Source: Cyanidioschyzon merolae
Taxonomy: Eukaryota
Strand: one strand, 5' to 3'
DNA: 64,000 bases
Assembly: GCA_000091205.1 (NCBI GenBank)
Contig: AP006487.2
Part shown: positions 1 to 47,250 of the stretch, piece after piece
Layout of the letters: every line of letters starts with the position of its first letter
Position numbering within the stretch: the stretch's first letter is position 1
Program-made: the position numbers and the translations under genes
The notes under the pieces: model-generated
What the model saw: the letters and a program-made list of their open reading frames with translations, nothing else
Told to the model about the DNA's origin: nothing
Database searches by the model: none

Positions 1-4
1 GCAG

Positions 5-653: not shown

Positions 654-688
<35 letters not shown>

Positions 689-2623: not shown

Positions 2624-2842
2624 GGGAGACCGATTTTCACAGGTTTCTGTTCTCTCTGGCAGCGGCCGTAGCAGCAGCAACAACAACAGCAGCAGCGTAT
2701 GAAGGCAGGCGGTGCGGCAAGCGGTGCGTATCTGCGATAACGCGACTGTGGGGCGCGAGCACAGACCACCCCCGAGCGTGTCGCCCCAGGTCGGCGTCGA
2801 GCGAGCGCATGTCGATACCGCTTCCATCCGTACCACGAGTTT

Positions 2843-7023: not shown

Positions 7024-7214
7024 AAGGGCACTCTATGGAGTACGCCTAAAATACCAACCTGTCGTTGCCGCAAGCTCCGGGTTTGTGGTTTCCCGCCACC
7101 AGTTCAACAACTCGCTGCAGCAGTTGCTGGTGGACGTGCTAGAGGCACTGACCACGCAGCGGGTCGATGACGTACAACGCGCGTGGTTTTCTGTTTTGGC
7201 AGAACGTTGATCTG

Positions 7215-8560
7215 GACCATGGATACTAGATCCTGGGATGGATATTGCTGTTCGGGAAAGCGTCCATTAGTCTTCACTCTACCTCCGAATTCCATGACCC
7301 ATACTTCCCCTCGGATGTACTGGTCGTTTCGTACGTTCCATTGTGCACCGAGCGCATGCGATGGGCGTCTACGCTAGCGAATGTACTGCTGGGGCGGATG
7401 CAGCACGGACAGAGAACGGCTTGGCCATGCCATTCAGGCCGTCCACTCGAGGCGCAGTGCCTAGGGCGCGGAGTAGGAACTCATCCTCAACCTGGGAGCC
7501 AGCAAGCTGCGCAGACAGACCTACTGCCCGTGACAGTGCGGAGCGATTTGCTCGGATGATCCGGCGACCGGTGGAATACCTGGATGTAGCCTAATCACGA
7601 CTAGTCCAGGAAGAAAGTGCCTCGCGGGCGAGTTGCTCAGGTCGCAACCCCTGTATCCGCCGCGGGAGGCAGCACGAAGCACTTGCCTGGCACACTCGTC
7701 CGGCTCGTGGGACGCTCCACCTGGAAGGTAAACTTGCAGGAATGTGGAAAATTTTGCCCCCTTTTACCGTTTCTCGTCCAGGGGAAAGAAACTGTTATCG
7801 AGTTGCTCGGTAGTGGGTATTTTCTGTCTTTCGGCACAGTTGCAACGAGTAAGCGGTTACTTTCTGGTCTTAGCACCTCGGATGCCTCGTCGAATCATTG
7901 AAGACCTGTCCTGGACGTCCGGCGATGTCCTCGTACTGGACAACATGGCGTTTCACCGTTGCCCTTAAGTTCGAGCAGCAGCTTCTTATTCCTCCTCCGT
8001 GCACTCGTTTGTTGAACCGTATTGAAGGAGTGTTATCTTTCGGGAAATATCATGATCGCCCGAGTAAGCGAATCGCTGAAACGTTCAGTACACGATGACA
8101 CTAAGGCACATGTCGTCTTTTTTCCGCAAGTCCTTCGTCCTCCGGTAAGGTCCTAACCCAAGCGCATAAACAAGTGCGATCATTCCCAATAATAAAGCAT
8201 CCAAGGGATAAGCCAGAACAGACACTCCAGAAAGTCGAAAATGAGAGAAGCCAGCGGAGCGCTCCGGCGATAGAAACCCACAGAGAGCTGACAGAGCAGT
8301 AAATGGCACAGAAGAAACCAGTCCGAGGAATCTCTGGTTTGGCGAGATCAACCAGAAGTAAAATACATATAGAGTTCGTGAACCGCGACTCCAACGCCGC
8401 CATCAATATCACGAGATGTGCATTCCGAAACGCGACACCTGTGAAGCTCACACGAGCGAACTTTGCGGGACACCCCCCTGAGGATCCAAATGAACACGGA
8501 TAAACTGAAACCGATAACCGTCAACCAGGCAAAAAACGACCGCGATGCATCCGCGCCCCC
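7215..8560 (+). mobile_element. Degraded, internally deleted copy (E1) of a Fanzor/TnpB-like element. Consists of the ~600-bp family-specific 5-prime repeat (repeat C, 7215-7800) plus the C-terminal RuvC-II/RuvC-III remnant.
   Basis: 7215-7800 aligns with 24690-25270 (for example tggtcgtttcgtacgttcc, gcaagctgcgcagacag, cccccttttac blocks). 8100-8503 encodes a remnant homologous to the C-terminus of the 27026-27706 ORF (KVRGLVAFV...RDFNAAVYI vs PVRGISGLA...RDSNAAINI). The 3-prime tail motif ctgaaaccgata... is shared with the other copies. Confidence 0.6.
8303..8503 (+). pseudogene. TnpB/Fanzor-like RuvC-III C-terminal fragment (part of E1)
   Basis: Translation ...IHIEFVNRDSNAAINITRCAFRNATPVKLTRANFAGHP matches the TnpB-family RuvC-III signature (RD-x-NAA-x-NI) and the equivalent region of the larger copies at 27480-27700 and 44843-45151. 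Confidence 0.6.
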
Positions 8561-11687: not shown

Positions 11688-14600
11688 CGCCCACGCGATA
11701 AGTTGTTCTGCAAACTGAGCATCACAACCCAAGACGGAGGAGAATTCTAAACCGTACCGATTTCCGACGGGCTCTGCACGCAACGCAACGCAACGCATCA
11801 CGTCATGAGTATGCGGCATCGCCTCATACGTCGGACGCGTTGTGCACGACTTCCCGATCGATGTTCAAGTGGTATTCGCTGTCGCGAGTGCATTCGGCCA
11901 CTGCCGTGGGTACTCAGACCGATCGATATGCTTTTCTGCAAGCGTCGCTGCTACCGCAGCCATCCTGGCTAGTCGCTCACGAGACACCGCGACGGCATTA
12001 GCGAACGTCCGCAACGCCGGCGTCCAGTGTTCAGGGGTTGTATGCCAAGCGTGTGCCGGCACCAGCGGTATTCCCGAGATGACTGCTTATCGTAGCACTA
12101 TGCAGATCTATCGACTTGAGCGTGGTCAACTCCGCGTCTAGCGTACGCGCTCTTCCACGCACTGCACAAAACGCACCCAAGCATTTCATGCTCGTGAAGC
12201 AGCGCTTCCTATAGCATCAGGTGACGCTGGTGTATGTGAGCAGCCCTGCACGCTGCGCATGGCATGGCAAAGGCGCGTGGCACGCACACGGGACACGTAG
12301 GTTGTGATGCGTGTCTTTCGGCGACACGCACGCACGCACGCATCCGGCGATGCATGAATGATGAGCGTGCCTGCGCAATCGGCGTTAGACAGGCAATTGG
12401 GCGCAGCTCGTGTCGTGTACGGCATCATGGACGAGAGCGAGGTGTTTTCCCTGTATTGGGCGTGTTTACTATCAAGGTGAACGTTTATACACACAGAGGA
12501 GAATCGCTGGTTTGGTGCTGTAGGCGCCTATGCTATGGTTTGTGCTGCTGTTTGAAGCGCGCGGCTCGTTCGCAGCGCAGTTTCTCGGGGTTCGCGCAAC
12601 GGTGCACCCTGCGTCTAGGCGTTGACTAGAGCGTCGAGGTTCCTCAGCGCATCGCTTCGCGTCGTCGCGGCAATTCGTTCAGCCGCGCGACACGCTGGTT
12701 CCCAAGGACTGACAGCGAGTCGCGACCCCGCAAACGGTCGACGACGCCTCAAGTCGACGCTCGTGGCGTCACTGCAAAGCTTTCCTGACTCTGTGGGGTA
12801 ACCGCAGCGGCAGCGCACCTGACAGAGCAGCAAGCATTTTTGGGGTATGCTCCGCATCCAGAGGTTCGCTGGATCGATTCGGCCTAATTTGCTTCCAGAA
12901 ACACCACAAGGGGACCGGGCCACGCAGAAGCGTATCTGGAGCAATCAGGGCCTCTTCCCTGGTATTTCGTTCAGTTGGCGCTTGCGGGACCTCTGGTTAC
13001 AGAACATCACTCGTACATCGTTAGAATACTGCGTGCACCTCGGGGGCTCTGAGTAAGATTTCCCTGTTCTGCTTGAAAGAAATCAAAATCTTGCGCAGCA
13101 TCCTGGGGCCATTCGCTGTCGCCCCGCCCCGTGTCGCATGATGGATGCATTATCCACGATACTGGATCATGGTACATCGATATCGTTCGCCATTTGACCT
13201 GGAAAATCTTTCCTGGTGTATATTCACAGCGCTTCAGCGTCGCAGCGTTACTGGAACGTATCGTATGAGTGCCGTGTCCCCGGTGGATTCCAATGCCCTT
13301 TCGCATGACCATTGCATGTTTCTATCGCAAGTCTTCCGCATTTCAGCAAAACGACCAAACTCCGTGGGAAACGAATCGCCCGAAAGCTCGCTCCTTATCA
13401 AGCTGCTGGACGCTCCGGAAGCATGACACGATTCCATAGGCTGATAGAGACATTCCAGTCTCGGTGCGGAGAGCGCGTGGGTTCATGGTCGCTTGTAGAG
13501 TCACACCATGGCACGCTTGTCACCCTCGATTGCCTGGTCAACTGACGTTCGCTTATCTTACAGTGAACCGTCTCATGCAAGCGGCTTTGTTGCATTCCGT
13601 TTTTATATACCTGTTTCAGCGGTAACACATGCACCCGGTGCCTGTATGTCATCTCGAACGCCTCGTTGAGAAGCATCCAGGATCGATATCTCGATCTCTC
13701 GTTTCACGCTCGTGTCGAACGAGCACGAGTGCAGCCCCTAAGCGCTAAAGCACACCCAGCACCATAGGCTACGAGCATCGAGCAACGCTCCGTGTCTGTC
13801 ATTTGCTTCCCCAACACATTGAAGTTGGCGAATGAGCGCGCCTTGCTTGTATACGACAGAGATCATTGGCAATGCCTGCACAATCCCGGATCAACCTGCC
13901 AACTGTCGCCCGCACGAGCGATTTGGACGCTGATCCACGGTGAAAATGAAGCACAGAGTGCATCCGCCGCTTTTCGGTGCGGTGCTCAGAGCGTCGACAT
14001 GGGTCCTGACGCCGTCCCTCTACTGTTCGATATACCTCTCGACGCCTATCATGATCGACGCTTGCAATCACCTGGCCCCGGAAAAGTCGACCAGTGCCAT
14101 CTAATTTCCATTCAGGCAACTGGCTCATCCCCTTTTGCTAGAGAGGTGCGTCGACGGTCATGACGCCCATCAATCCGGGATCCACGTCCACCGCGAAGTC
14201 GTTCTCATTGTCGGCCTGGGACCGTAGAAAAACGAGTCTCATTGCTTGACGCAGGCCTCGATTTAACAAAGTGCATGGAGACAGATATTCCGTTGACCTC
14301 CAATGTCTGGGTAAACTTTATTCCATTCCATCTCTGTGAACACAGAACCATCGGCGAGAACCGCCACTGCTCTTCGAGAGGTCGTTCGAATGCTTCGAAG
14401 GTGCGCGCGAGTGCCACCCGTAGATCACTGACGTGGTCATATAGTACACACGTTCCAACTGTAATAGAATAGGCCATGATGTGACACGTGCAAACCACAA
14501 TGAATAGACGCTTGAGAAGGCCGGGGCGCTCTGATGCGGGCAGCGAGCCTTGTTTGCGCTGGACGGCGCCGTCCAGGAGCACGAAGAAACGCAAGATGCG

Positions 14601-21889: not shown

Positions 21890-22300
21890 ATGATCAGGGG
21901 CTTCTTCTGGGCGATTGACGGCGCTGCATGCCGACACGCGCACGCTGTTCCATCCGATAGGCGGTTTGTGCAATGCGATGTTCACCATGATGAAACAATT
22001 ACCGTAAGCAAAATCTATACTCGTGATCCAGACAACTTTTTTCGATCCGTCAACGCTCACTTCGTCGAAAGCGCTGTCGCATTTTCCATGAGAAGCGATC
22101 TTTGCGATGATGCAAGTCCGAGAACGTTTACCACGCACACAGATGAGGCCGCCGCCTCTGCCAGCACATCCCATGAGCTGTACCAAACAGCTGTCGAATG
22201 CCGTATCGTCGATGTCCGCAAAGCGCGCAGAATTTGCCTTTCAAACGGAATCGGTTATTGAAAGTCCCAAGTCGAGTGAACGTTCGGCAGGTGTAGGTAA
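21890..22300 (+). repeat. Diverged fragment (B3) of dispersed repeat family B
   Basis: DNA and translated similarity to the 41700-41950 / 51430-51680 repeat (GFFWAIDGA... vs GFLWVDALS...; DVHHDETITVSKIYTRDPD vs DVDHDETSTTRRIQDREED). Also similar to 61060-61215 (shared tcgatgtcYgcaaag...agaatttgcYtttcaaac block). Confidence 0.5.
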
Positions 22301-23074
22301 AAAAGAGTCGCCATGCCACGACGCCGTTTCCTTTTTTGACGTGAATCCGTCGGCGCGAATTCCAGCGCCCACGAATTGCCTTGAAACAGAAGGACGGAGA
22401 ACATCAACATGCATTGATTTGACCATGCTAGTTGTGAGGAAATGTGATGCTTGATGACTCATTCGTACGCAGTCGATCATGGCACCGGTGATTCAAGAAA
22501 CCGTTGTTCAGAGGCGTTGAAAATCGAGCTAATCCGGATGACGTGACGAATCCCAGCAGCAAATCGTCAAAGGAGTGACTCCGAGAACACCCTCGGAACG
22601 CTCAAAATTAGTTATGAATCTCTCAGCCTTAATTTTTGCACGTTGCATGTCGTCGTTTTACGTGGAAAGAATTTCGTAAAAAAATCGCCATGCAGGACCA
22701 GAGCAAGCAGTTCAGTGTTCCAGGTTCAGCTACTGATATGAGCGAATGTCGTAGACTCCAGCGCACGTGCAGATGCAACGTCTATTGATGCACGGGTGGA
22801 GCGACGCGAGCGAGCTTCTCTTGAGCGAAGGCGATGCAACGCAACGTCGTCGTCCTGCCGAGCCTCATGGCATGCCGCGGACTCCACCGGGGAGCACTCA
22901 TACGAACAGACACAAACACATATACATACACTCGATGGGAATGGGTTCCAATGCGAGTATGTTTTCTGGTAAAACAGGGCGCCGTCGACAGGGTGTCTGC
23001 CCTACCATTCGCCAACGAGGTGGGCGGCAGCTTCGTCCAGGGCGCCGGCGCAAACGCTGCGGTCACTGTTTGGT

Positions 23075-24253
23075 ATGAGCAAACCAGCGGGTGGCTGTGG
23101 TGGCAGCGTCCCGGTGCCGGGCGATTGTCCCAAAAAGCTACTTTTTCTGGGTCCACGACAACTTGCAGTTGTTCCGGATGGGTCGCTGAGTCGCCCTCTG
23201 GAGCCAGACGAGGTTCGCGTCAGAGCGTTGTGCTCGGGCGTCAGCGCGGGCACGGAACTCTTGTTGTACAGGGGTCAGATTGTGGCGGACGATGCGCTGG
23301 ACGCGACCATAGCGGCGTACAAAGACCCAGATGCGGGACGGCGGGAGCATCGTAGCTTGTACCCAACGACGTTTGGCTACTGCCTCTGGGGAGAGGTGGT
23401 CGCTGTTGGGTCTGGGTTGGACCGCGAGCGCTGGGTCGGTAGCGTTGTTTTTCTCCTCGCTGGGCACGCCGAGGAGCACATTGTGAAAGCCAGTGACGTC
23501 CTTTTTTTCGCAGACGACTGGAACGGGGCCACTCGGGAGCTAGTGCTCGCTGTTCCCCAGCTGATTCCCGTCAGCGAGACGGTGACGTGCTGGCTACAGG
23601 ACGCTGCCCCGGTGCTCGGCGACCGGGTTGCAGTGGTCGGTGCTGGACTCTACGGCTCTGTGTTGGCGGTAGGCGGAGCTCTGCTTTTCCCACTGAGCAC
23701 ATGGCTCGTGGTGGAGCCAGATGCAAAACGACGGGCGCAGCTTGCTGTTGCGCTGAAAGAAGCGTCAGTCACACGTTGCCAAACGCTGGCACCCGACCAG
23801 GTTCAGGCGTACTTATCATCATCATCGTCATCAGAAACTCGCTTCGATATTGTGCTGGAGGTGTCTGGAACGACGGCGGGGCTCAATGTTGCGCTGGAAC
23901 TAGTCCGCGCCACGGGTCGAGTGATCATTGGCTCCTGGTATGGGCGCAAGGCACAGGAGGTACCGGTGGAGATGCTGGGCTCTACCCGCCTCCATCGAAG
24001 CCACGCCCAGATACTCTTCTCCCAGGTCAGTGAGATACCCCCGTGGCTCGCTGGTCGTTACGATAAGCGTCGACGATTGACAGTGGTGCAGGAATTTCTG
24101 ACGACCTTTTCCTCTGCGTTCAAGGCTATAGCTTGCACCGTTCGGAGCTTTGCGTTTGAGGAAGCACCTTACGTTTTTGGGCAGTTAGATAATGGGGCGC
24201 TATCGGACCCAGTTCGCTTCCTGTATGGGGATTCTTCAAGCGCTTTTTCCTAG
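23075..24253 (+). CDS. Medium-chain dehydrogenase/reductase (zinc-type alcohol dehydrogenase-like) superfamily protein
   Basis: ATG start. N-terminal GroES-like region (PLEPDEVRVRALCSGVSAGTELLLYRGQ). Rossmann GxGxxG motif (VAVVGAGLYGSVLAV) and the overall MDR layout. Confidence 0.55.
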   Translation: MSKPAGGCGGSVPVPGDCPKKLLFLGPRQLAVVPDGSLSRPLEPDEVRVRALCSGVSAGTELLLYRGQIVADDALDATIAAYKDPDAGRREHRSLYPTTFGYCLWGEVVAVGSGLDRERWVGSVVFLLAGHAEEHIVKASDVLFFADDWNGATRELVLAVPQLIPVSETVTCWLQDAAPVLGDRVAVVGAGLYGSVLAVGGALLFPLSTWLVVEPDAKRRAQLAVALKEASVTRCQTLAPDQVQAYLSSSSSSETRFDIVLEVSGTTAGLNVALELVRATGRVIIGSWYGRKAQEVPVEMLGSTRLHRSHAQILFSQVSEIPPWLAGRYDKRRRLTVVQEFLTTFSSAFKAIACTVRSFAFEEAPYVFGQLDNGALSDPVRFLYGDSSSAFS

Positions 24254-24689
24254 TGTCTGAGAGATTCTAATCTTTCTTTATGGTTCCGCACAGTCGCCAA
24301 TTCGCTTGCAGTATTTCGAATCGATACGCGTGGAGGTACTGAAAAGCAGTCGTATCTCAAAGCATCGTCCATATTTGGGTAACGCTGATACCTCTAAAGG
24401 TTCTAAAACCCGTGCTATCTCAAAACAAGGGACACGGCACGCCCGGCGCCTGTTCGTTCTTTGGACCCAATCAAGCATCGATACCAAAAGCAAGCCCTAT
24501 GTGGAGGCCACAAAAACGTAGAAGCATTTAGGTAGAAACTATAAACGCTCCCCTGGTATCTGGAACCCTTGCGGTATCCAGCGCGTCACATATGGCACGC
24601 TGTACGAATGCACGCCGCCCTGACCCTGCCATGCATCGACAGCAGCAGCGCGGGCGTGATTTTACTTCGATCACAAAATTCGTTTCCAG

Positions 24690-27600
24690 GGGCCATGGAT
24701 CCCAGATTGCGCGATGGGCAATGGCTCTGGGGAAAGTCTCCACGATGATGCATCCACGGCCAAGTTCCATTGCTTATACTTCCTTTCGGATGCACTGGTC
24801 GTTTCGTACGTTCTGTTGTGTGCCGAGTATCTGCCTTGATGCACCAGCAATAGCGCTTATATCCCTGGTAAGGATACAGCGCGAAGACAGAGCGGATTCT
24901 TCATACTACTGACGGCGTCGAATCGAGGAATGCTACATTTATTGACAGGGAGTCACGGCAAATTATCATTCTGGGAGTCTGCAAGCTGCGCAGACAGCAT
25001 TCTGCCTGTGGCAGCGCGAAGCGATATACTAGGAGTCCACTGCCACTAGTGCGACGTCCAGACGCAGCCTGATTGCCCCTAGTCCCAGAACAGACTGCGT
25101 TGCGGACGAGCTACGCAGATCTCTCTAAAGCACCAGCCAGTTTCGAGGCACACCGAGCACCAGCCCGGCAAACTCGTCCGGCGCGCTGCACTGTTCACCT
25201 AGAAGAAAAACTTTCGACAACATAGAATCCTTTTCCCCCTTTTAATGTTTATCACAGAGGGAGAGAAGGAATTGTAATCTCGTAAGTGGATCATAGTGAT
25301 TCTCTGTTCTTTGTTCTAAATAGTGCGGTTGATACTCGCATCTGGGAGATCTGGCCGTCACGAGGCACGACGCGCATCTCGCCGTTGAAGGGAAACACGT
25401 TTCTGATCAATACCGTGTTGCTCTAATGTACAAGTTATATTTGGGTTAAAATCATAGCGAATTATAGTCTTTCAATTCAATTCTATTTCAATTCTCAGGG
25501 GAGTGTATTCAAGTGATTTTTCGCGGTGTATATTAGAAGCTTTCAAAGAGTCTTCTTTTTCAAAAAATTAAAGAAGGAAAGATATAGAAAGGAAAGTAGA
25601 GGATCCCGGCGGGCCGTTTTCTCCGGCTGTCGGAAAGAAACGGAACGCAGTGCCAAGCAAAGAGGAACACGACAGGACGAAGAAGCGAAAGAAGGATGCC
25701 AGACGTCAAAAGCTGCGAGCAAGTCGACAGTACGACGAGATAGGAGCCAAAGCCCTTCTTCTACGCCGCAGCAAGGATCCCTAAAGCAAATAACGCATGA
25801 GGTCATCAAAAAAACGTGTCGCGTCTTACGCTATGAGTATTATAAAGGCTTCTTCAGGACTGATGCATTGTCGAAGATGTACGACAACGTGACGGAAATT
25901 CGAAGAGTCGAGGTTCCGGCAGAGTTTATCAACAGGACCTTTATTCGCCTCCTGATGGTTGGCACAGGGGAAACGCCGAGGAGAAATGAGCGAGAGCATG
26001 TCCTCCACGAAAATCACAAGGAATACCGCTTCAACGGTACTCGGCACAGGGACGGCGCGGATATCTACACATACGGTGTGAAAAGTACCTCACGAACCTG
26101 AAGAACCATTTCATAATGAGCCTCAAACGCTTCGTGATACGCGCCGTCTTTGCACTCTACCCGGGTATCTCTCGCAGAGGCAGACGGGCCAGCATCGATG
26201 GCATCACGAACGACAGCAGGAGTGAACGGGAGATCGAATTCGTCCACGAGGAGACTTCAAACCGGAGTATGAATGAAGCTTCCGTGGCCCGTGCGGCTAT
26301 GCAAGAGCACCGTGCGGTCTTAGGGCTTGTCAACCCAGCGGAAAAGATATCAGATATGAAAAAGGATGGAAAAGGTGCGATTCCCTCATCCTGCGTTATT
26401 TCGTGTCCCTGAACCGAGAGCGCGAACGCAAGGCCGATATGGCGCCGGCCCTAAAAAATCGAGAGTCGGACAAACGGAAGGCTTTCCTACGAGAGAGGCG
26501 CTTCAACGTTGTTCGGATTTGCGGGATCAAGTCGGATTTCGTGACCATCAACTCCAGCGTCCTCTACTGGATCATGAGGAAGATCAGTATAGAGTTCTGT
26601 GTAAGCAACAAGGAATTCATCGGCGAGAGCCGGGAAACGTATTGGAAGAATATCCTCGATCTGAAGCGTCTCAAAACGAGCATGCGAGGGGTATCCGCGG
26701 GGATCGTCGAAACCGATAGGGTATCCATAGGTGTTCACTGACGGCGCTTGAGGGCGGATCGCCCGGTTCCATCTTCGTTGTCACCCGTGACGGAGCATGA
26801 AGGAAAGAAGGAGGCGGATCCTGCGACGCCGGCGGTGCAGGAGAACGACCGTGTCGTTGGCACGGACCGCGGAAATACGAATACCATAATCATCGCAGTA
26901 CCCAAGCCTGGGGAAGATGGTATTGACGGCAACTTATGCGAGAAAGACACGCGACTTTTGGAGTTCGCGAGAGCGAGCTATGACCGAGAATCCGGTATAA
27001 TGAATGCCAGGAAGAAAATTGAGACATGGAATGCAGGAGTCAAGGAAGAGCTGGAAGCGATCAGCCAGGTGCCTATCCGCGGAGCGGACTTTCGAGATTT
27101 TCGGGAGCTCGTGAAAATTCGCGTTGCTCATTGCGAGGATCTGTGCAAGGGGTTTGCAAAGTACCGGCTTGGTGGGCTCGTCACCACACGAACTTGTACT
27201 GTGGGGAGCAGTGTCTATTCGCGAGCTTTTCCAACCAGCTGGGCGCCCTCAAGGAAGACGATAGTCAAAGGCTCGTAACAGCGTGTGAAGCAGAGCGCTG
27301 GGCGCCAAAACAAAAGGAGTGTACGCCCGCTCCGTCGCCACGAGCGTACAAGGAGTACGCACGGCGTTTTGTTACGATACATGTAGATGAGTTCCGAACT
27401 TCATACATACAATACGAGTTGGGGTGTCCGCTCCAGAGGGACGAGATGGAAAAGTGCCATCGACGCTCTGAGGATATAGAAAAGTACGGACCGCTGACGG
27501 AAGAGCGAATGGAAAGGAGGGCGAAAGTTCGAGGACTAGTCGCATTCGTAAGTAGAAACAGAGGCGAGAAAGGTGTGGAGTGTGCGAACCGAGACTTTAA

Positions 27601-27800
27601 TGCCGCTGTGTATATCAGGAGATGCGCAGTGCCGGAGAAGAGACCCGAGGAGTCGACGAGGGCCAACTTTGTGGGGCACCCCTATTCCCCCTCCGCCCCG
27701 AGGTGAAATTGCACGCGAATACGTTGAAACCAGCAGTAGGTGGCCAGTCAAGGAAAACGGGTAGGCGTCTGCACGCCGGTGCGTGGACATCCAGCCTACG
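24690..27800 (+). mobile_element. Most complete copy (E2) of the Fanzor/TnpB-like element: ~600-bp 5-prime repeat C, fragmented nuclease gene, and conserved 3-prime tail
   Basis: 24690-25270 matches 7215-7800. 25640-27665 is about 95% identical to the inverted copy at 47040-44975. The 3-prime tail (27690-27790, ...ttgaaaccagcagtaggtggccagtcaaggaaaacgg...) aligns with the tails of the other three copies. Confidence 0.65.
25526..27706 (+). pseudogene. Fanzor/TnpB-like RNA-guided-nuclease-family gene (RuvC-I, RuvC-II, degenerate zinc finger, RuvC-III). Either interrupted by several frame changes and one in-frame stop, or contains unannotated introns.
   Basis: Ordered ORF pieces in frames 2,1,0,0,2. 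Basic Lys/Arg/Ser-rich N-terminal segment (NLS-like). RuvC-I-like RVVGTDRGNTNTIIIAV (~26850). RuvC-II-like FVTIHVDEFRTSY (~27385). RuvC-III RDFNAAVYIRRCAVP (~27590). A frameshift near 27680 moves the conserved tail EVKLHANTLKPAVGG...RRLHAG into another frame (ORF 27622-27900). Confidence 0.6.
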
Positions 27801-27969
27801 GCCGGGCGGCGCGCTGCCCGCCACCACTGCACACCAGAAGCGCAGCGTTTGCCGCCTGGAAGAGAGTCGTTGCTGCCGGTGTTCCTCTAGTCGAGTTTAA
27901 GAGTTTGGACCGGTCGTTCCTGTAAATCTCGATGAGATTGGGATTTTAAACGGGTGGTCATCACCGCTT

Positions 27970-29220
27970 ATGAGTGCCTTCTTCGCCAAAGTTCGGGGGG
28001 CGTTCCAGAACGTAACTTCGTTTGCGGCGGACGCCAGCTACGACGAGGAGCTCAATCGCCTCATTCAGCGCTGCAAGCAGTACAAGGATGTGAACGATAT
28101 GATTATCAAGCAGGCCAAGCTATATGACACGTCGCTGCGGGACCTTTCATCCGTGGGACGTGCAGCCGGAGAAACGTACATGTCCATAGCTAGCTTTCGA
28201 AGCTTCCCTGGCGGCGCTGTCGCGGGAGAGTCAGACTTGCGGCTGGCGCAGGCGCAAGGTTCGTTTCGAACCAGGAGTATAAGCTCGCTTAGCACGGCGG
28301 ATGCCAGTGACCGGAGCACAGGAGCGGGATCCTTCTATCTGTACCGGAGCGACGAACGTCGCGTGCTAGCGCAGCTCGGCCGAGCAGAGCGCGCTGCGCA
28401 CCAGGCACAGGCTGTGTTCGCAGAACGTATTTCGGCCCCGATTATCCTCGAGGGCCGTCAGTTTAAAGAGCGGTACGATGAGTTGCGACGGCTCAAGTCG
28501 CTCTACAAACGATGTAAGCGAAGGTACATTCAGGCACAAAGAGCTCTGGCATCGGAGAAAGCGAAGCGGGTTCCTTCTATGGAAGCACAGGTGAAGCTCG
28601 TGGCCAAGCTTGCGGAGCACGAGGAAGAGTTCAAACGCGTGACAGAGAAACTGTTCGTTCACGCAAAGGCACTCGAAGATGAACATCACTATTCGGTCAT
28701 GCAACATGTTTGCGGCTTTCTATTGCACCATTACAACGCACTCGTTATCTCCTTGCGCGCTATCAAGAACGTGATCGCCATCGCAGAGAAACACATTCCG
28801 GAGAAAATTCAGCTTGAGAGGCTGGAAAGCCTTGCCATCGAATTACACAAACTCTTGCCGTCAGCGGAAGCATTTGAACACGCTGGATTGGGAGGGACGG
28901 ACGCCGTACCTAGTTTGCCGGATAGTTCCCAGAGTTCGTCTGCTGGACGTGAGGATGAGTCGGAGCTTCGTCTGCGAATACAGCGCTCGGAAGAACTACT
29001 CAGCGTGGCGAATGCCGAGTCTCAGCGGTGGAAGATGCTTTATCTCCAAGCAGAGCGAAAGAATCGCGCACTTTACCTCGAGAATCACCGTCTTAAGAAT
29101 ATGATGCATGGAGTTGATTGCTCCTCTATCCGAGACGACCGACAGTCCACTTCTTCGTTCATGTTCGATGATCAGCGGTTGATGACTGAGGCGCAGGCCC
29201 GGCGAGGTCATATCACCTAG
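27970..29220 (+). CDS. Coiled-coil protein, possibly BAR-domain-like; function unknown
   Basis: 416-aa ORF with ATG start. N-terminal MSAFFAKVRGAFQNVT...DEELNRLIQRCKQYKDVNDMIIKQAKLYDTSLRDL resembles the N-terminal helices of BAR/amphiphysin-type proteins. Long heptad-like segments follow. No firm family assignment. Confidence 0.35.
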   Translation: MSAFFAKVRGAFQNVTSFAADASYDEELNRLIQRCKQYKDVNDMIIKQAKLYDTSLRDLSSVGRAAGETYMSIASFRSFPGGAVAGESDLRLAQAQGSFRTRSISSLSTADASDRSTGAGSFYLYRSDERRVLAQLGRAERAAHQAQAVFAERISAPIILEGRQFKERYDELRRLKSLYKRCKRRYIQAQRALASEKAKRVPSMEAQVKLVAKLAEHEEEFKRVTEKLFVHAKALEDEHHYSVMQHVCGFLLHHYNALVISLRAIKNVIAIAEKHIPEKIQLERLESLAIELHKLLPSAEAFEHAGLGGTDAVPSLPDSSQSSSAGREDESELRLRIQRSEELLSVANAESQRWKMLYLQAERKNRALYLENHRLKNMMHGVDCSSIRDDRQSTSSFMFDDQRLMTEAQARRGHIT

Positions 29221-31397: not shown

Positions 31398-31611
31398 ATG
31401 GCGAGCACTTCGACCATGTCAGGCAGCCGACGGAAGGAATTTACTGATGAGGATCGGGAGGAGTTCCAAGAAGCATTCAACCTGTTCGATCGCGACGGTG
31501 ATGGCCTCATCTCAGCGAGCGAGCTTGGCTCAGTGCTTCGCTCGCTCGGACAGACTCCAACTGAGGCTGAGATCCAGGCTCTCATAGCCGAGGCGGACTC
31601 GGATGGTAAAG
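31398..31611 (+). CDS. Calmodulin-like EF-hand protein, exon 1 (EF-hands 1-2)
   Basis: ATG at 31398. ...[51 protein letters not shown]. The exon ends in phase 1 at a GTAAGT donor at 31612. Confidence 0.8.
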
Positions 31612-31761
31612 GTAAGTGTCAGGGTACAAGAGCGGTCTTCAAAGCAGACGGGATTTATTGACGCGTGTACGAGAAACCTTGCTTTTTTCCGTCAAGCAGA
31701 AACTAACCAAGGGGCCTGGTGGAGTTCAAAAAACCCATGTGTTCGTCCCTATGAACTGCAG

Positions 31762-32042
31762 GTTCTGTAAACTTTGAAGAGTTCCTCGCGCTAATGACAC
31801 AGCACGCGAAGGATCCAGCTGAGACTGAGGAGGCACTGAGACAAGCGTTTCGTGTGTTTGACCGCGACGGGGACGGCACCATCAGCACCAGTGACTTGCG
31901 CTACTTTATGGTTACTTTAGGTGAAAAGCTCTCCGAGGACGAGGCCGATGAAATGATCCGTATGCTCGATGAAGACGGCGATGGTCGCGTCCAATGGGAA
32001 GATTTTGCTCGGCTGCTTAAAAGCAGTGTCAATACTCAGTAA
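31762..32042 (+). CDS. Calmodulin-like EF-hand protein, exon 2 (EF-hands 2-4)
   Basis: The CAG acceptor ends at 31761. The splice restores GSVNFEEFLALMTQHAKDPAETEEALRQAFRVFDRDGDGTISTSDLRYFMVTLGEKLSEDEADEMIRMLDEDGDGRVQWEDFARLL. Intron 31612-31761 (150 nt) has ACTAAC about 45 nt upstream of the acceptor. Stop at 32040-32042. Confidence 0.8.
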
Positions 32043-35000
32043 TACCGAATCACGGAACACCATTATCGTACCCCAACTGCACATGAAAAGCCTTCCCTGT
32101 GTATGTGAAGCGCACGAATCATGCTGGATTGCTGCCGCGTGTCACACTAGTGCCATATCTCTTGGAAACGGATTCTTTCCATCGACATTCTTCAACGTTT
32201 CAGCACAACGCATGCACTGAGAACTAAACGATGCCCTCGCATGTTTGCCAGAAACAAAACTGCTAGAGGCTTCTGGTGCACGAGACATTTCCGGATTTCG
32301 ACCGAGGCGCTCGACTCTCGGTGCGGGAGTGCTTGTGTGCATTGTTGCGGGTGGAATCACGAAATCGTTGGCCGCTCACCTTTGACTGCGCCGCCATCGT
32401 ACGAGCGGTCATCTTAATCTGCACCATCTCGTGCATCCGGCTCTGCTTCATACTCTTCGTCTCTGCCAGTTTCAACGCGCACCAGTGCTCGTGATGCATC
32501 TATGTCGTCCTGAACGCATCGATCGGAGTCGAACACGACCGATGCCTGGTCTCGTTGTACGATCTCGTCGAGTGAGCAGGAATGTCGCGATTGCGCGCTG
32601 TGGAACGTCTAGCGCCACAGAGCACCAAAGAAACGACACGACTTGCAGTCATTTCATATTCCAGCTCATAAAAATGAATCGGGGAATGCACGTTTCTTGC
32701 GTTCGCTGGACGGCAACCGCTGGCGGCCCCAGCGCGAGTCATTCGAAGACTCACGTGCTCGCCAAGCGCACAAAGCATTCCGCTTTGCTCACTATGGTGA
32801 CCAGAGCAACGATACTGGTTTTGACGCGGTCATCCCAGTTGTTCGTATGCTTCCTGAGGTGCATCATGCCTGGCGCCGGGTCCAACCTAGCTTTCGAAAA
32901 GTTGAACGGATGCGTTCGCTTTCCGTTCGCGTTCTTCGACTGCGTCCTCTTGATTTAACGGGACGGCGACGGCCACGAAGCCCTTGAAACCGTGATAAAC
33001 GTTTATGACGACTTTTTTCTCTTTATATACCTTGAACGGCTGAAAATGAGTCTCGTTACCCGACACAGGCTTGGGTTTCAAAACAAAAGCTGGTTGATAT
33101 TCTCCATCGTCCTTCATCAGCTCTATGAGCCTCTGTCCATTCCGTCCCTGTAAACGGGGAATCTTCAGCAATATCCGCCAGTGCTCGTCGCAAACTTTTG
33201 CCCATGCTTTGTACTTGCTCACGAAGGACAACTCTTTCTTCTTCTCCTCTACTTGACCTGTTGGCATGCATGTGGTCACTATGCTCTATACCAGTCTTTT
33301 CTTCCAAGGGATCTAGACGCGCGAGGTGGATACCATGACAGGAACTCGCCCAACTTATTTATGTAAGAGTCGACTACACTTCAAGTACCTTTGGGCACCG
33401 TCTCCTCCGTGAGCAAGCCCATGTAAAGGAGCCGTCGCTCTGCTCCATCCAGCGGACGAGCAGAGAAGCAACAGTCATCCGGGGCTGGTTTGAGTTCGAG
33501 AACGACTGGTTGGAGAACAGATTCACATATACGAGACAAGCAACTAGTGATTCTTATGTGTGGAAGTGACTTATGGAAACGGAGACGACGCCTTCGACAG
33601 ACTGAACCATTCGAACGGGTTGGTAAGCAGAGCAACTCAACGCCGATTTCAACCGCGTGTTCCTCGACTGCTTCTGAGTGACGGATAGCGGCTCTGTCCA
33701 AGAGCAGGAGAAGGGAATTGCCGAACGAGATGCTCCAAGCATTGCGTCTCACGAAGCATGGGGTTTCAATGACCCTGTCCGTTTTACGAGCCGTTGGCGA
33801 CTCTACAAATGAATACCTATACGCGTTACGAATCTCGGAATGCTCGATTGTCTCTTCTCTATGACCAGTGATTTGCCCTTCTTGGAGATGCCATATACAC
33901 GTCCACTATTCTTCCTGAATAGGGTCTCACCGAATGAGACGAATACCCGCCTCTCGTGTAGTGAGCGTTCGTATTCCAGTGCGAGATCGATCGGGTGTGT
34001 GTTGTGAGGCACGCGACGGTCTCGCCTAGAAGTGTGCGTTCCTCTTTGTTCGTCCGTGTTTCTTCGTCACCGTTCGTATCAGCAGTATGGAAAGTTCATG
34101 TTGCGTGGGTTGTTTGATAGCCTTTCATGGACGACATAGAGGGTGGAAAAGATTGACGGGGCTAGGTTCGAGCTGATAGCGTTTGATCGACTTTGGTCTG
34201 GACGCACAACGTTCCGAATATTGTCTACGAGACGGGTGATTCGTCCACTTGCTGACCGTTGAATGACTGACTCAAAGTATGGTCGTTCTTCGCAGACTAA
34301 AATTCACAGCATCAAATCTTTCCGTGATGTTTCTCCAACCCACAAAACGCAATATGTTTGAGTACCTATGGAGCAAACAACCAAAAGGCAAAACAGTGCG
34401 TGCTGGTGCATGTGTGCCGAAAAATTCACTGCTCAGCCTGATACTGCGCTCTCGGCCAGGCACACGGACTGCAGCGCTCGATGACTCCGGCCTTTGGAAG
34501 ACGATGCGTATCACATGCAGACGACGCTGAGCATTTCGCGAACTGCTGCCCGCATGGGTCCTTTTCTAGTGGAACAGTTCATTTTCGAGCATGGCGAATA
34601 TAGCAGTTTTCTCTCTGAAAAAGTATCATGGCTTTTATGTCTATGATACAGCGGAACTGACCGACATCTGCGTCGCGGCTTAAATAAAACTGATTCAACG
34701 CTACTGTTGTTCCTGAAAAAGGCAACGCTACACCTACCTGCATTTTTTGTTTTCTTAGCGCCCGTGCGCGCCTGTATCCTCCATCTGAGCAACTGAGGCG
34801 GCGACCCTGTCCCGCGCGCGCAGGACTCGCCCGGTCTTACTCTAGAGCAGTTGCGCTTTCCAGTGCTACCACAAAAGCAGCACAACGGAGCGAAGGACAG
34901 CTGGCCGCTCTTCATTCTCTTATGCTACAACTCCTTCGTCCTCTCGATCGATTCGGATGCCGTGAGTCGGAAAATCAATTTGCAAATTCGTTGCCCGAGG

Positions 35001-36567
35001 GCGCCGCAAACTCTGCCCCTCGAGTGAGTCGAACACCGATGCTGTGAAACGTTACGTCCTCAACCGTTCTCCATGGGCACGCGCGCGGTTCGAACCAGCG
35101 TCTGGCGCGTTTGCTCGCGATGCCCGTTCTCCAGTAGGGCCAGCATTAGAAGACGCCACGACTAGACGGGCTCCAGACTCAAGCTTCTTGAGCGCTTACA
35201 TAAAGCCAGCGTGCACAGAGGCTCCGAGAAGCGTTGGCATCTCTCCATGGCGTTTGCGACGACGCATCCGGCCGTGCAGTAAGCGCCTGCGATCGTTCGG
35301 CGCATGGAGCATCTCCGGATTCATCATGCCAAGTTTCGAAGTCGAATGCTGCGCTGGATATCCCGAAGCGTCGAAGCATCCGTGGACTGACTGAGGCCTC
35401 TTCTCTTCCTCTTGAGATCGTCCACGAATACTGAACAGTATAGTTGTATCCGTCATTCCAACTAAGTCATGAGATGGATATTGCGCACCAGGAAAATAAG
35501 GGAAAAGTGCTCGTGGTCTACGCAACCAGCATACTGGAGTTGGGGTGCAGACGAAGCCCGCGGGCAGTATCTTTACAAACAGCACGGCGAACCAGCGACA
35601 TCCTTCCGAACGAATGAGCGCGGGTGCTTGTACACCACGGCGATGTTGAACGCTCTGCGCCCTGTTACAGACCCGCACCTGTTTCATGGAAGAGTACCTG
35701 GATCATACTCCTACTCACGCATGATTTTACGTATGTAGGATGTAACCTTATTTACACGAACAACGGGATACCGACTAAGCGATGATTATCTACATTTAGG
35801 AAAACCTTCCGCAGTTCGCACGAGATCTCCGAGGTCCACCTGCAACCAACATCCGCACCCCCATTCGAAGATCATAGCAGAATCAAGCTACCCTCCGGGT
35901 GTCGAGCTTGCCATAACCATCCTATAGGCTTTAAGCTCAATTGTATTCCATCTCCAGGTGAATGGAATCCGACGCTTTTTCGCGGTTTCTAGCAGAAGTG
36001 TTCGACGTGCGTCTATGATCAAAGAAAAAACTCCACGAGAGAGGCAAGGACATGGAAGCCGGGCATCATGGGAGGCCTTGATCGCCAGCTGCCGGACAAG
36101 GAAAGAGACATGCCCTTCTTGCCGACTATCGAGCGAAGAAGAGCAAGTAACGAAGAAGCACAGGGCAGGCAGGAATGCGTCTGCTGTTCATCGCGAAACA
36201 GCGTTCGATTACGCGCTCCCTGGGGTGGAACACAATTGGGGTGAAAGGTGGGAAAGCGCGACGTGTCGGTACGTTTCCGATAGCGGCGGCGGTGCGGTAA
36301 CGACGTGCCGCTGTGCGATGTACACGTGTACACGTCGCGAAACGGCTATCGTTTCCGTTCCGGGCGCGCGAAACAATACTTGTGTAGCTTCAGTTCGAAA
36401 GCTTGGAATGTTTGTATGCGCTTTTGAACATGATTGTTCCATCATGAAGTTATTAGCTCTAGCGGGTAAAATGTCTCTGTAGAGCTTTCGCTTGCCCGTG
36501 AAAAGCAACCCATTTGAAGCGGTTTGGTGCGAAGGCAGTAACGTTGAACTGACAGCCTTGGCGTGTC

Positions 36568-37605: not shown

Positions 37606-38908
37606 AGCATCATGGGCCGTCTTCGGATTTCTGGAGGCATCGGGGAAACAGGTTCGTCTCGGAATGAAAAATCACATAGCGTAAATTTATATCGTACTAT
37701 GGCAAAGCTTACCCCTTTCAGAAGAACCGCAGTCAGCGCAAAAGGCGCGCTACTTGCGAACGCCCAGCAGACTTTCAAGTTACCCTGGGCACACGCGTAC
37801 TGCGCTGGAGCTATTTTGCACAGTTTTCGTAAAGGATGTTTTACTGGAGTGTAAGACCGTTTACAAGGGCCAGCGATTCCCGATTGCGAGAATGATATCG
37901 GCACCGGGGAGAGCGTCACAAAAGGTTGCGCAGATCTAACGGCGTACTTCTCGGCTGCTGTGTGATCACAGCTTGGTCCAGGTAAGCTTGTTCTTCAGGT
38001 AGTGTCCTCGAAAGAGAGCTCTCGTTCCGAACTCGGAAAAGAAACAGTTTCTGTCAAGCACTGATTACCGTGATCGACGAATGCACCTGCCCCTGTCGCT
38101 TCACGCACCTCCAGGTTGTCTGTTCGCTGCCAGATGTGCGCCTTCATGGCAGTCTCAGAAACAGACAGACCTCCTTGGGGCAGGCTTCCGAGCAGCGCTC
38201 GCCAACGCCTGTCCTGTTGCCTGTCTCCGAATCGAGCCGAAACGCCGAAAGCCAAACGAGGCTCGCCTTCGAAACGCACAGGATTACGCCCGTACATCAT
38301 GCTTGTCAAGATCTGCCGCAACCTACACACAGACACCAGAAAGTTTTCCGCTTCGTGACGCCGCGAGTTGCGCGTTTGTCAACACCCCGACCCGAACGAA
38401 CCCGTTCCACACTGCGCACCTGAACAAGTCACCCGAAATCTGTTAAGCGTTGAACGAGCGTGCAGCAACCGGCACATACAACTCTCCTGCTGGTCTTGCA
38501 AACCGAAATGCAACGACCATAAAGCCGTCCAAACCAAGGAGCTGCGCGCACCACAGTTAAACTCCTCTACCGAACCTTCTAGGCTGTCCTGCTGCCAGTC
38601 GTGTTTTCCAGTTATTCCTCAGAACTCAAGTTACGTAGCTCTTACTCTACAAGATGCACATGCAAACGCACATGCTTTTATCGATTGGGGCCCTGATCGG
38701 CGACAACTGCGAGCAGGGTCACCACAAAGTGCTTGGCCCGACAATCTGGTCCAGTACCCGAACAACTGCAGGAGCGGAGGTGCGCAGGCGCGGCCGCCGC
38801 GATGGGGAGCTCATACTGCACTGGTAGCTGAAAGCTGTCCGCTTCCGCTTCCCTTGCTTTTTGTCGCTCCGGGGTGGCGTTAGCCAAGAGACTAGTTTAC
38901 GCTACACT

Positions 38909-41114: not shown

Positions 41115-42300
41115 CAGATTAACATGGAACACTGAACTGCATGATCTGTGGCTGCATTTCGATTTTTTACGAAGCTTTTTAAGATGTCTAGCCTCGATAT
41201 CCGGAGTGCAGTGATGCGGGCTCACGGTTCCATGCATAGATTCAGGATTCTCGGTAGTGTTTTCGGAGTGACTCCCTCCGCTCTTTGAAGCTGGAATTCG
41301 GTACTTTATCGGAATTAAGATGATTCGTGACGCCATCGATCAGCGGTTCATAGAATAACAGATGCCAATATCGAGTCTATACGTACGAGCGTCCACGCTT
41401 CCCCTTTCGTTACGTGTAGCGTGCCCAGGTCACGCATGCTTCAAGTCTTCGATCGCTCGGTTTCACGGCAACTCATGGGCGCAGCGATCCGTGCCGTTCA
41501 ACAGACGATGTGGAAGATTCGCCTTAGTCAGTTGACGACCTGTTCAGAAGCTCATGCCGGGAGTTCCCTGGACTTTTCGCACCAAATGATGAAAGGACTG
41601 TTCGGAAAACGAATCCTATGCTCTCTGTGGATATCCACGCAGAGGCATCCCATTGCAGCACGATACCTCCCGCATGATACGCTCCATGCGGCTCCACAGT
41701 CTTCCGTCTACATCGGAAGGGGTCTTGGAGTCGGGCTCGAGCCATTGCTGCGATCGTTTCGAATAGTGCATATGTCACCGGAGTGCACTAGCGGAGCGTT
41801 GAAGGATAGAAACTTCTCGTCCTCTTCTCTGTCCTGGATTCTCCTAGTGGTACTTGTTTCATCATGGTCGACATCGCGTTCCACAAAGACTCGATCGAAC
41901 GTGACGCAGAGCGCTTTCGAGTGCAGCGTCCAGACTGCTCGCTGAGGGCATCGACCCAAAGAAACCCGTGATCATCGGATACGACACGAGGCGCAGAAAC
42001 AAAGCATGGCATCAAGGCGAGCCACCTGTACCCGGACTGGGCATGTACCGAGCGTTACAGCAAGTGCTCAAGCGCCGCAGTAAAGTCCCCATAGGAGGAG
42101 TCTGGGTATTATTTCGTAACACTTGACCGCAGCCAAGTGTTACCGGCGCGAAGGGCTCGCCGCAGCTGTGGAGAAGTAAGATGAGCATGGCAAGCGAACC
42201 GTTGATCGCCCTTGCATCTTTGCACGGAATACGTCGATGACAGCCTGAGGCAGTGAAATCGGGACTCAGACGCCGCCACCAACAGTGCTCAACTCCAAAC
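41115..42300. repeat. Repeat family B, copy B1 (~1.2 kb). It is one arm of an inverted pair with 51080-52268.
   Basis: Near-identical to the reverse complement of 51080-52268 (174-aa ORF identical except 2 residues; 98/112-aa ORFs identical for the first ~70 residues). Boundaries found where the two alignments break down (~41115 vs ~52268; ~42300 vs ~51080). Confidence 0.7.
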
Positions 42301-44799: not shown

Positions 44800-47250
44800 T
44801 GCCTATGATTTTTCCAGTTCAGTGGAAAAGAATATCCCAAGATCATATACGGTAAATTAGTCCGCACCCGCATACTCTTACCCGCCTTTCTCGACCTGAC
44901 CCTTCAATCGGTTTCAGGTGCTCGCTGTATACTTCGATTTTGAGAGGTTGCCAAACGATGATGGCTCGTGTCAGCTGCTCGGGTCTCTTCTCCGGCACTG
45001 CGCATCTCCTGATATACATAGCGGCATTAAAGTCTCGGTTCGCACACTCCACACCTTTCTCGCCTCTGTTTCTACTTACGAATGCGACTAGTCCTCGAAC
45101 TTTCGCCCTCCTTTCCATTCGCTCTTCCGTCAGCGGTCCGTACTTTTCCATATCCTCAGAGCGTCAATGGCACTTTTCCATCTCGTCCCTCTGGAGCGGA
45201 CACCCCAACTCGTATTGTATGCATGAAGTTCGGAACTTATCTACATGTATCGTAACAAAACGCCGTGCGTACTCCTTGTACGCTCGTGGCGACGGAGCGG
45301 GCGTACACTCCTTTTGTTTTGGCGCCCAGCGCTCTGCTTCACACGCTGTTACGAGCCTTTGACTATCGTCTTCCTTGAGGGCGCCCAACTGGTTGGAAAA
45401 GCTCGCGAATAGACACTGCTCCCCACAGTACAAGTTCGTGTGGTGACGAGCCCACCAAGCCGGTACTTTGGAAACCCCTTGCACAGATCCTCGTAATGAG
45501 CAACGCGAATTTTCACGAGCTCCCGAAAATCTCGAAAGTCCGCTCCGCGGATACGCACCTGGCTGATCGCTTCCAGCTCTTCCTTGACTCCTGCATTCCA
45601 TGTCTCAATTTTCTTCCTGGCATTCATTATACCGGATTCTCGGTCATAGCTCGCTCTCGCGAACTCCAAAAGTCGCGTGTCTTTCTCGCATAAGTTGCCG
45701 TCAATACCATCTTCCCCAGGCTTGGGTACTGCGATGATTATGGTATTCGTATTTCCGCGGTCCGTGCCAACGACACGGTCGTTCTCCTGCACCGCCGGCG
45801 TCGCAGGATCCGCCTTCTTCTTTCCTTCATGCTCCGTCACGGGTGACAACGAAGATGGAACCGGGCGATCCGTCCTCAGGCGCCGTCAGTGAACACCTAT
45901 GGATACCCTATCGGTTTCGACGATCCCCGCGGATACCCCTCGCATGCTCGTTTTGAGACGCTTCAGATCGAGGATATTCTTCCAATACGTTTCCCGGCTC
46001 TCGCCGATGAATTCCTTGTTGCTTACACAGAACTCTAGACTGATCTTCCTCATGATCCAGTAGAGGACGCTGGAGTTGATGGTCACGAAATCCGACTTGA
46101 TCCCGCAAATCCAAACAACGTTGAAGCGCTTCTCTCGTAGGAAAGCCTTCCGTTTGTCCGACTCTCGATTTTTTAGGGCCGGCGCCATATCGGCCTTGCG
46201 TTCGCGCTCTCGGTTCAGGAACACGAAATAACGCAGGATGAGGGAATCGCACCTTTTCCATCCTTTTTCATATCTGATATCTTTTCCGCTGGGTTGACAA
46301 GCCCTAAGACCGCACGGTGCTCTTGCATAGCCGCACGGGCCACGGAAGCTTCATTCATACTCCGGTTTGAAGTCTCCTCGTGGACGAATTCGATCTCCCG
46401 TTCACTCCTGCTGTCGTTCGTGATGCCATCGATGCTGGCCCGTCTGCCTCTGCGAGAGATACCCGGGTAGAGTGCAAAGACGGCGCGTATCATGAAGCGT
46501 TTGAGGCTCATTATGAAATGGTTCTTCAGGTTCGTGAGGTACTTTTCACCCCGTATGTGTAGATATCCGCGCCGTCCCTGTGCCGAGTACCGTTGAAGCG
46601 GTATTCCTTGTGATTTTCGTGGAGGACATGCACTCGCTCATTTCTCCTCGGCGTTTCCCCTGTGCCAACCATCAGGAGGCGAATAAAGGTCCTGTTGATA
46701 AACTCTGCCGGAACCTCGACTCTTCGAATTTCCGTCACGTTGTCGTACATCTTCGACAATGCATCAGTCCTGAAGAAGCCTTTATAATACTCATAGCGTA
46801 AGACGCGACACGTTTTTTTTTGATGACCTCATGCGTTATTTGCTTTAGGGATCCTTGCTGCGGCGTAGAAGAAGGGCTTTGGCTCCTATCTCGTCGTACT
46901 GTCGACTTGCTCGCAGCTTTTGACGTCTGGCATCCTTCTTTCGCTTCTTCGTCCTGTCGTGTTCCTCTTTGCTTGGCACTGCGTTCCGTTTTTCGTCGGA
47001 AACCGCGACACCAGGCCCTCAGCATCATCGACTTGCAGCCCCATATCTTTCCTTTAGATTTTTCTTTCTTCACAATCAACGCACTTCGAACGTGCCTGCT
47101 GTAAACCACGATAAAGAATTTGATTACAACCATCTGCGCGTAGAACACGGTTGACTTGGAAAACTATCAGGTTCCGGGTAGTCGCTTCGCGCACGGCAGT
47201 GGCAAACGCTCGTCTGCGATTTGCGAGCTCTGCAGACTCGTTTTGACATG
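44800..47250 (-). mobile_element. Inverted copy (E3) of the Fanzor/TnpB-like element. About 95% identical to E2 over ~2 kb, with more disablements and a truncated 5-prime repeat C remnant.
   Basis: ORF series 46735-47148, 46215-46511, 45886-46224, 45349-45849, 45164-45601, 44843-45151 (all minus) mirrors the E2 ORF series. Extra lesions: CGA->TGA stop at ~45168, homopolymer A7->A9 frameshift at ~46807. 47160-47250 aligns (reverse complement) with the repeat C segment tcgcttcgcgc...gtctgcgcagcttgcagactc. The C-terminal tail QPLKIEVYSEHLKPIEG is intact here. Confidence 0.65.

Follow-up and report, generated by a model that had tools for sequence, protein, structure and literature searches.

The question raised by positions 24690-27800 of the 64-kb stretch of Cyanidioschyzon merolae DNA analysed here (the window, in which all coordinates below are given) is what kind of element they hold, and whether any copy of it could still be at work. 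A first-pass annotation had proposed a multi-copy eukaryotic TnpB-like or Fanzor transposon family, not bacterial contamination, with four copies labelled E1 to E4, of which E2 occupies these positions. That proposal held up well, as the neighbours of E2 are exact C. merolae genes and the family is a published one, CMe-1A. We are highly confident that 24670-27860 holds CMe-1A over its full length, in a copy inactivated by mutation, CMe-1A being an element of about 3.2 kb with one open reading frame (ORF) that codes for a 734-amino-acid (aa) Fanzor1 protein, that the other loci are truncated, deleted or decayed relatives of it, and that the near-identity of E2 and E3 most probably reflects gene conversion. 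The element family has been known since 2013, as have its consensus, the number of its copies and the Fanzor1 protein it encodes, and our finding is a rediscovery.

E2 and the published CMe-1A family

The ORFs on either side of E2, at 23075-24253 and 27970-29220, match C. merolae 10D proteins BAM79265.1 and BAM79266.1 (CME033C) exactly, and because of these matches E2 is placed in intergenic DNA that has no annotation and separates the genes of two consecutively numbered proteins; the locus is part of a nuclear chromosome of this red alga. CMe-1A was described from C. merolae as a Fanzor1 family by Bao and Jurka (2013, Mob DNA 4:12; PMC3627910), who listed CMe-1 as Fanzor1 and reported about 150 copies with ~80% identity to a 3169-bp consensus, an encoded protein of 734 aa, no terminal inverted repeats (TIRs), undetermined target-site duplications, and a 5' region of 635 bp equal to TE-N2_CMe. 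In the literature searched, nothing besides that paper dealt with a Fanzor of C. merolae.

When the published consensus (supplementary file 2 of PMC3627910) was aligned to the window by nhmmer, E2 on the plus strand corresponded to consensus positions 3-3164 of 3169, end to end, with a score of 2106. Identity was about 80% (0.74-0.87 per alignment segment over most of the element), in agreement with the figure published for the family. The CMe-1 protein aligned to E2 by tblastn in six pieces, spread over three frames, at 45-73% identity, and no TIR was seen in alignments of the element ends. E2 shares with the published family its species, the ORF layout for the 734-aa Fanzor1 protein, the 5' module and the lack of TIRs, differs from it in nothing essential, and is a member copy.

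The same consensus gave 13 matches at 12 places in the window, E2 included, and at least seven protein-homologous loci and five non-coding fragments could be counted (Table 1), so that the four copies first proposed were an underestimate. E1 is internally deleted, as had been described. E4, which had been taken for a 300-bp stub, covers two separate parts of the consensus and has ~350 bp of further homology in common with E1 (55644-55996 resembles 7885-8217); in its RuvC-III motif the arginine is changed to glycine (GDFNDAINI). The 5' module is common to E1 and E2 (7142-7833 and 24614-25313, E = 2e-60, nhmmer) and also occurs as solo fragments, and its equation with TE-N2_CMe rests on the statement in PMC3627910. 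The homology between E1 and E2 goes beyond the published 5' end by ~55 bp on the upstream side, over 7142-7197 and 24614-24670.

All four RuvC-III peptides that the first-pass annotation had pointed to were recovered by motif scan, and a loose RuvC-III pattern occurred five times in the six-frame translation of the window, as against no occurrence in each of 20 shuffles. The RuvC-I motif suggested for E2 is likewise there with its aspartate, and E2 retains all three catalytic residues of the D-E-D triad (VVGTDRG, VDEFRTS and NRDFNAA), while E3 has exchanged the glutamate for a lysine.

Table 1. Features of the window, with strand and basis of each assignment (consensus positions are those of CMe-1A)
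Feature	Position	Strand	Basis or remark
E2, full-length CMe-1A	24670-27860	+	consensus 3-3164, nhmmer
E2 5' non-coding module, corresponds to TE-N2_CMe	24670-25313	+	consensus ~1-645; nhmmer and statement in PMC3627910
E2 Fanzor1 pseudo-coding sequence	25584-27800	+	consensus ORF 906-3110, tblastn
RuvC-I motif VVGTDRGNTNTIIIAV, E2	26853-26900	+	consensus VVGADPGNTNIITIAA; aspartate retained
RuvC-II motif HVDEFRTSY, E2	27380-27406	+	glutamate retained; E656 invariant in family
RuvC-III motif RDFNAAVYIRR, E2	27590-27622	+	R724, N727, N731 invariant; D725 at least 90%
E3, 5'-truncated pseudogene copy	47168-44867	-	consensus 786-3087, nhmmer
E3 tract 98-100% identical to E2 25638-27650	44975-46991	-	putative gene-conversion tract
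RuvC-II equivalent in E3, HVDKFRTSC (E to K)	45221-45247	-	motif scan
RuvC-III peptide RDFNAAMYIRR, E3	45005-45037	-	motif scan
E1, internally deleted copy	7197-8052 and 8221-8513	+	consensus 4-858 and 2750-3044; nhmmer, tblastn
RuvC-III peptide RDSNAAINITR, E1	8384-8416	+	motif scan
E4, deleted copy, overall 55644-56402	55956-56090 and 56151-56402	+	consensus 874-1005 and 2839-3093
RuvC-III peptide DFNDAINIRR, E4	56228-56257	+	motif scan
Old diverged copy	14628-13383	-	consensus 1679-2996
Old diverged copy	33021-32241	-	consensus 2172-2995
Isolated C-terminal fragment with RDFNAAINI	60414-60596	-	family profile positions 565-618, independent E = 7e-6, six-frame translation scan
5'-module fragment, TE-N2_CMe-like	5135-5320	+	nhmmer with consensus
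5'-module fragment	12446-12813	-	nhmmer with consensus
5'-module fragment	35918-36163	+	nhmmer with consensus
5'-module fragment	37854-37932	+	nhmmer with consensus
5'-module fragment	49487-49738	-	nhmmer with consensus
tRNA gene	50681-50751	-	Rfam RF00005, 66.5 bits; only Rfam gathering-level match in window

Fanzor1 membership and the conserved 3' end

A frame-corrected composite, used as query, found 75 relatives. The best of them show 57% identity across 98% of the query, and they include a full-length protein of 752 aa (P0004); the sole precomputed label on many of these relatives (P0001-P0065) was PF26935 (DUF8286). The search was widened to 1.84 billion cluster representatives, of which 2228 clusters matched at E <= 1e-3, typically with 600-700 aa, and a family profile (A2) was built from 50 sequences next to a narrower one (A1) from 11. 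Run against the sequences of the PDB with hmmsearch, profile A2 matched the solved Fanzor1 proteins of Parasitella (PpFz1, 1.7e-23), Spizellomyces (SpuFz1, 9.4e-14) and Guillardia (GtFz1, 1.7e-8), and no TnpB or Fanzor2 chain was among its four hits at E <= 10. The TDG, DPG, DEFRT and NRD motifs line up between the profile and these solved proteins. In the alignment of the 50 members the consensus motifs read RVxGxDPGRxNI, VDEFRTT and VRGLLWC...FVNRDLNAAxNIRRC, with D484, E656, R724, N727 and N731 (P0004 numbering) invariant and D725 conserved in at least 90%.

For structure prediction, P0004 (71% identity to the CMe-1 consensus) stood in for E2. An AF2 run on the shallow 11-sequence alignment had given a pLDDT of 36. 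Its AlphaFold2 (AF2) model from the broad alignment reached a predicted local distance difference test score (pLDDT) of 80.3 and a predicted template modelling score (pTM) of 0.79, and in a Foldseek comparison with the PDB it matched SpuFz, PpFz and GtFz with E-values of 7.5e-18 to 7e-15 and TM-scores of 0.47-0.70. Cas12 proteins came next in the ranking, at E >= 3e-3, and the 50 matches listed, made up of Fanzor1, Cas12 and weak unrelated chains, held no bacterial TnpB or Fanzor2. The catalytic metal ligands of SpuFz1 are D383, E541 and D606 (PMC10432273), and the positions aligned with them are retained in the CMe-1 family. Because both profile and predicted fold match solved Fanzor1 proteins, and the ligand-aligned positions are kept, membership of CMe-1 in Fanzor1 is supported by sequence profile and by modelled fold, which bears out the Fanzor-type RuvC domain seen in the first reading of the locus.

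Set against SpuFz1 (8GKH, 9CEU), PpFz1 (9CF0) and GtFz1 (9CER), the CMe-1 clade is alike across the WED, REC and RuvC regions and shares with them the TDG strand, the RuvC-I D(P)G, the RuvC-II DE(F/Y)(R/K)TS and the RuvC-III NRD motifs, although at a mere 13-16% sequence identity. Unlike in the solved proteins, the CxxC...C..C zinc ligands are missing from the nuclease-adjacent domain of the clade, and before RuvC-I it carries a disordered linker of variable length made of 25-aa tandem repeats.

Several results weigh against the Fanzor1 assignment and should be read together. The 11-sequence profile A1 matched no solved structure among the PDB sequences, so that it took the broader profile to connect the family with Fanzor1. 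Pfam and NCBIfam scans of the raw E2 ORF pieces gave no match; on the intact relatives, Pfam gave solely a weak PF07282 match (18 of 50). Moreover, the C4 zinc finger between RuvC-II and RuvC-III, a motif described in PMC3627910, is degenerate in the CMe-1 clade: where PpFz1 has CPKC...C..SC, CMe-1 has TSYTHHELGC...RGLLALVS (the stretch being TSYTHHELGCTLQRVEMEKC...RGLLALVS), CPKC of PpFz aligns to h-h-e-d of the family, and one cysteine (WC) is left in the family consensus.

The RuvC-II motif HVDEFRTSY had been likened to both Fanzor and IS607-type TnpB; the motif is present, but the family is Fanzor1. An IS607-type Fanzor2 identity was rejected, as no Fanzor2 or TnpB chain was among the profile hits or the 50 fold matches listed and there is no adjacent recombinase (no TnpA-like or other recombinase-like ORF was seen adjoining the copies in the window). 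Bacterial TnpB proteins (IS200/IS605, IS607) and Fanzor2 have in common with CMe-1 the RuvC superfamily and a guide RNA that is expected to come from the element's 3' end; the CMe-1 protein is about two times as large as TnpB.

The 3' end of the family is sharply defined. In 30 non-redundant loci from environmental metagenomes (the environmental loci of relatives are labelled L001-L084) the element stops abruptly at ...CGTTCGACTTTCGAA(A/C)GGCG, and the last 130 nucleotides (nt) and the terminus ...CGTTCGACTTTCGAACGGCG (also written ...GAACGGCG) are sharply conserved; beyond the terminus there follows TT[TCG]G or GTGG, then unrelated flank. In most individual folds of this stretch, a long-range helix of 13 bp (CAGTAGT.GGTGGC with GCCGCCACTACTG) and a terminal hairpin can form. 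In the first 15-20 nt after the 3' end, the flanks of L001 and L008-L083 often continue from TT[TCG]G or GTGG into NTG-like triplets, for instance TTTGTTGTCGCTGCCG and GTGGTGGTGCTGG. Such a flank could be a preferred target, an unrecognised tail of the element or a retained guide segment.

If SpuFz1, GtFz1 and TnpB are a guide, an intact protein would enter the nucleus by means of its basic N-terminus (in CMe-1, with the motifs KKRK and KKQKR) and would be made up of WED, REC and RuvC domains. An omegaRNA, for which the conserved 3' end is the predicted source and whose guide would extend into the flank, would be bound by the protein. Its RuvC D-E-D site would cut guide-matching DNA beside a short target-adjacent motif, and guided cutting of this kind would help the element to be retained or to spread. 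RNA-guided cleavage by CMe-1 is a prediction from characterised Fanzor1 proteins, and a hand-built four-helix model of the candidate RNA, with 82.5% of positions paired, showed covariation no better than shuffles (220 of 500). The RNAalifold consensus folds of the 3' 300 nt and 130 nt were weak (-7.6 and -5.4 kcal/mol), and a gathering-level Rfam scan of the window gave no match at the element, the single hit being a tRNA.

Decay of the copies and the likeness of E2 and E3

E2 had been called near-complete, which is right for the DNA, but the copy is a pseudogene. Compared with the uninterrupted consensus ORF (906-3110), its pseudo-coding sequence carries nine frameshifting indels, near 25783, 25808, 25868, 26081, 26367, 27163, 27682, 27781 and 27799, and its coding signal is spread over three frames with in-frame stops (e.g. 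at 26742). E3 has five of the frameshifts of E2, at consensus 1106, 1191, 1408, 1695 and 2493, and every copy in the window is frameshifted, truncated or deleted, with no intact ORF left. Judged from sequence, no copy in the window can encode the protein. Among ~70 distinct environmental loci, one ORF of at least 650 aa with all three motifs was found, a scarcity that agrees with PMC3627910, where the family is portrayed as old and its intact members as rare.

E3 had been described as a 95%-identical inverted copy, and its likeness to E2 as a sign of repeated activity. The identity is in fact higher, 98.4%, but holds over an internal 2046 bp only (E2 25638-27681 and E3 46991-44946). Along the consensus, E2 and E3 are 0.98-1.00 identical from ~1050 to 2850, fall to 0.83 and 0.92 in the two border segments, and beyond these share 0.51 (751-900) and 0.33 (3001-3150), even though each of them can still be aligned to the consensus in these diverged outer regions. 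Diverged homology between the two copies continues in the 5' flank (25462-25659 and 47169-46970, E = 5e-14, nhmmer) and, weakly, in the 3' flank (27640-27783 and 44987-44863, E = 0.009, nhmmer), where a direct local alignment with strict scoring reached no significance. The high-identity tract has its borders, at consensus ~1040 and ~2960, inside the element and leaves out the 3' terminus, the end at which the family is best conserved. Because the frameshifts are shared, and because the tract is internal with diverged homologous flanks, we read the likeness as conversion rather than fresh transposition: ectopic gene conversion of a tract of ~2 kb between two old, independently inserted dead copies fits the alignments best. 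Against this it must be said that conversion is deduced from the E2/E3 identity profile only.

The alternative to be taken most seriously is that E3 is a recent transposed copy of an already dead E2, mobilised in trans, and that the family was recently active. An identity of 98.4% over 2046 bp, where typical copies are ~80% identical to the consensus, would sit well with such an event, as would the existence of rare intact relatives that could supply the activity in trans. However, the tract begins and ends inside the element, the best-conserved 3' terminus lies outside it, and E3 continues on both sides as CMe-1A homology diverged from E2; we consider recent transposition unlikely, and the five shared frameshifts, together with the internal tract and its diverged flanks, take the support from the earlier reading of repeated activity.

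Much less can be said for the idea that E2 is a functional spliced Fanzor gene whose introns bridge the frame changes. It is true that the coding signal carries on through three frames and that none of the three catalytic residues is missing, but each frame change corresponds to an indel of 1-14 bp relative to the consensus ORF, in-frame stops fall within conserved segments, and the locus is unannotated between two consecutively numbered proteins; C. merolae, besides, has about 26-27 intron-containing genes in all. Because protein homology continues uninterrupted through the junctions, the frame changes of E2 are, as far as the alignments tell, mutations and not introns, and the intron hypothesis, hardly credible on these grounds, was rejected. 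That the copies might be a domesticated host gene family or a bacterial TnpB contaminant deserves practically no weight; the TnpB-type RuvC motifs speak for it, but all copies in the window are broken, truncated or deleted, their neighbours are exact C. merolae nuclear genes, and the best profile and fold matches are eukaryotic Fanzor1 proteins, with no bacterial TnpB among the matches listed.

Modular anatomy, neighbouring features and significance

Many of the environmental elements begin at consensus ~611-660 and not at position 1, and upstream of such starts there is a different 5' module or an inverted TE-N2-like module. An inverted TE-N2-like unit lies directly upstream of a Fanzor part starting at ~611-700 in L025, L028, L032, L061 and L076, and a TE-N2-like unit lies ~56 bp downstream of the 3' end of the element in L031 (2512-2568), L038 (3642-3698) and L067 (1803-1859). 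Because of the variable starts, the swapped or inverted 5' modules and these downstream units, the sequences suggest that CMe-1A, as its consensus was published, joins two elements, a Fanzor module and TE-N2_CMe. A T-run (TTTTT[C/G]) regularly precedes the 5' end of the TE-N2-like module (L016, L031, L044, L050, L064, L073, L077, L083), and is found before the 5' end of window copies as well; it recalls the TTTT target that Helitron2-associated Fanzor elements of Chlamydomonas are reported to have.

Within the Fanzor1 ORF, the environmental relatives (L005-L084, e.g. L019 4202-4498) contain one to four tandem repeats of a 75-80-bp unit that corresponds to consensus 2117-2196; it encodes the 25-aa repeat, which is acidic and variable, and lengthens the disordered linker before RuvC-I, for which the model of P0004 (residues 374-470) has a pLDDT below 50. 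It could be imagined that CMe-1 is a mechanistically distinct branch of Fanzor1, without a zinc finger, with a repeat linker, and with a Fanzor module that carries the 3' hairpin and travels apart from interchangeable 5' modules, TE-N2_CMe following T-runs as in the Helitron2-associated Fanzor elements. We regard this as improbable, but if true it would mean that, in a thermoacidophilic alga, mobilisation of a one-ended or Helitron-like kind is coupled to cleavage guided by an omegaRNA.

In three of the environmental metagenomes (JGI 3300050357-59; L002-L004), contigs with a CME033C-identical protein start inside the 3' end of E2. The assemblies evidently break at the E2 repeat, and these samples contain a very close relative of strain 10D.

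The window also holds an inverted pair of 1146-bp repeats, 99.65% identical, at 41116-42261 (+) and 51126-52271 (-), which bracket ~8.9 kb with E3 and the tRNA gene and have diverged (~65%) relatives at 21939-22726 and 60877-61207. The 174-aa ORF in each 1146-bp copy had no Pfam match, and no link of this repeat family to Fanzor was found except a neighbouring Fanzor C-terminal fragment; it is probably another repeat or transposable element (TE) family, or another recently homogenised pair. A calmodulin-like gene at 31437-32027 (+) aligns in one frame to residues 4-149 of human calmodulin and spans 591 nt, an excess of ~150 nt that is consistent with an in-frame intron or insertion; just downstream of it lies the decayed CMe-1A copy at 32241-33021.

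As a discovery these results carry little weight: the family has been in print since 2013, and Fanzor1 biochemistry appeared in 2023-2024. Applied interest might attach to the intact relatives on contigs of environmental metagenomes. A name can be given to Pfam DUF8286 (PF26935), which by profile and fold belongs to Fanzor1 proteins. For the annotation of C. merolae, the intergenic stretch studied here and at least 11 other places in 64 kb can be recorded as CMe-1A debris, and the likeness of E2 and E3 is a caution that near-identical TE copies in this genome can arise by gene conversion rather than by activity.

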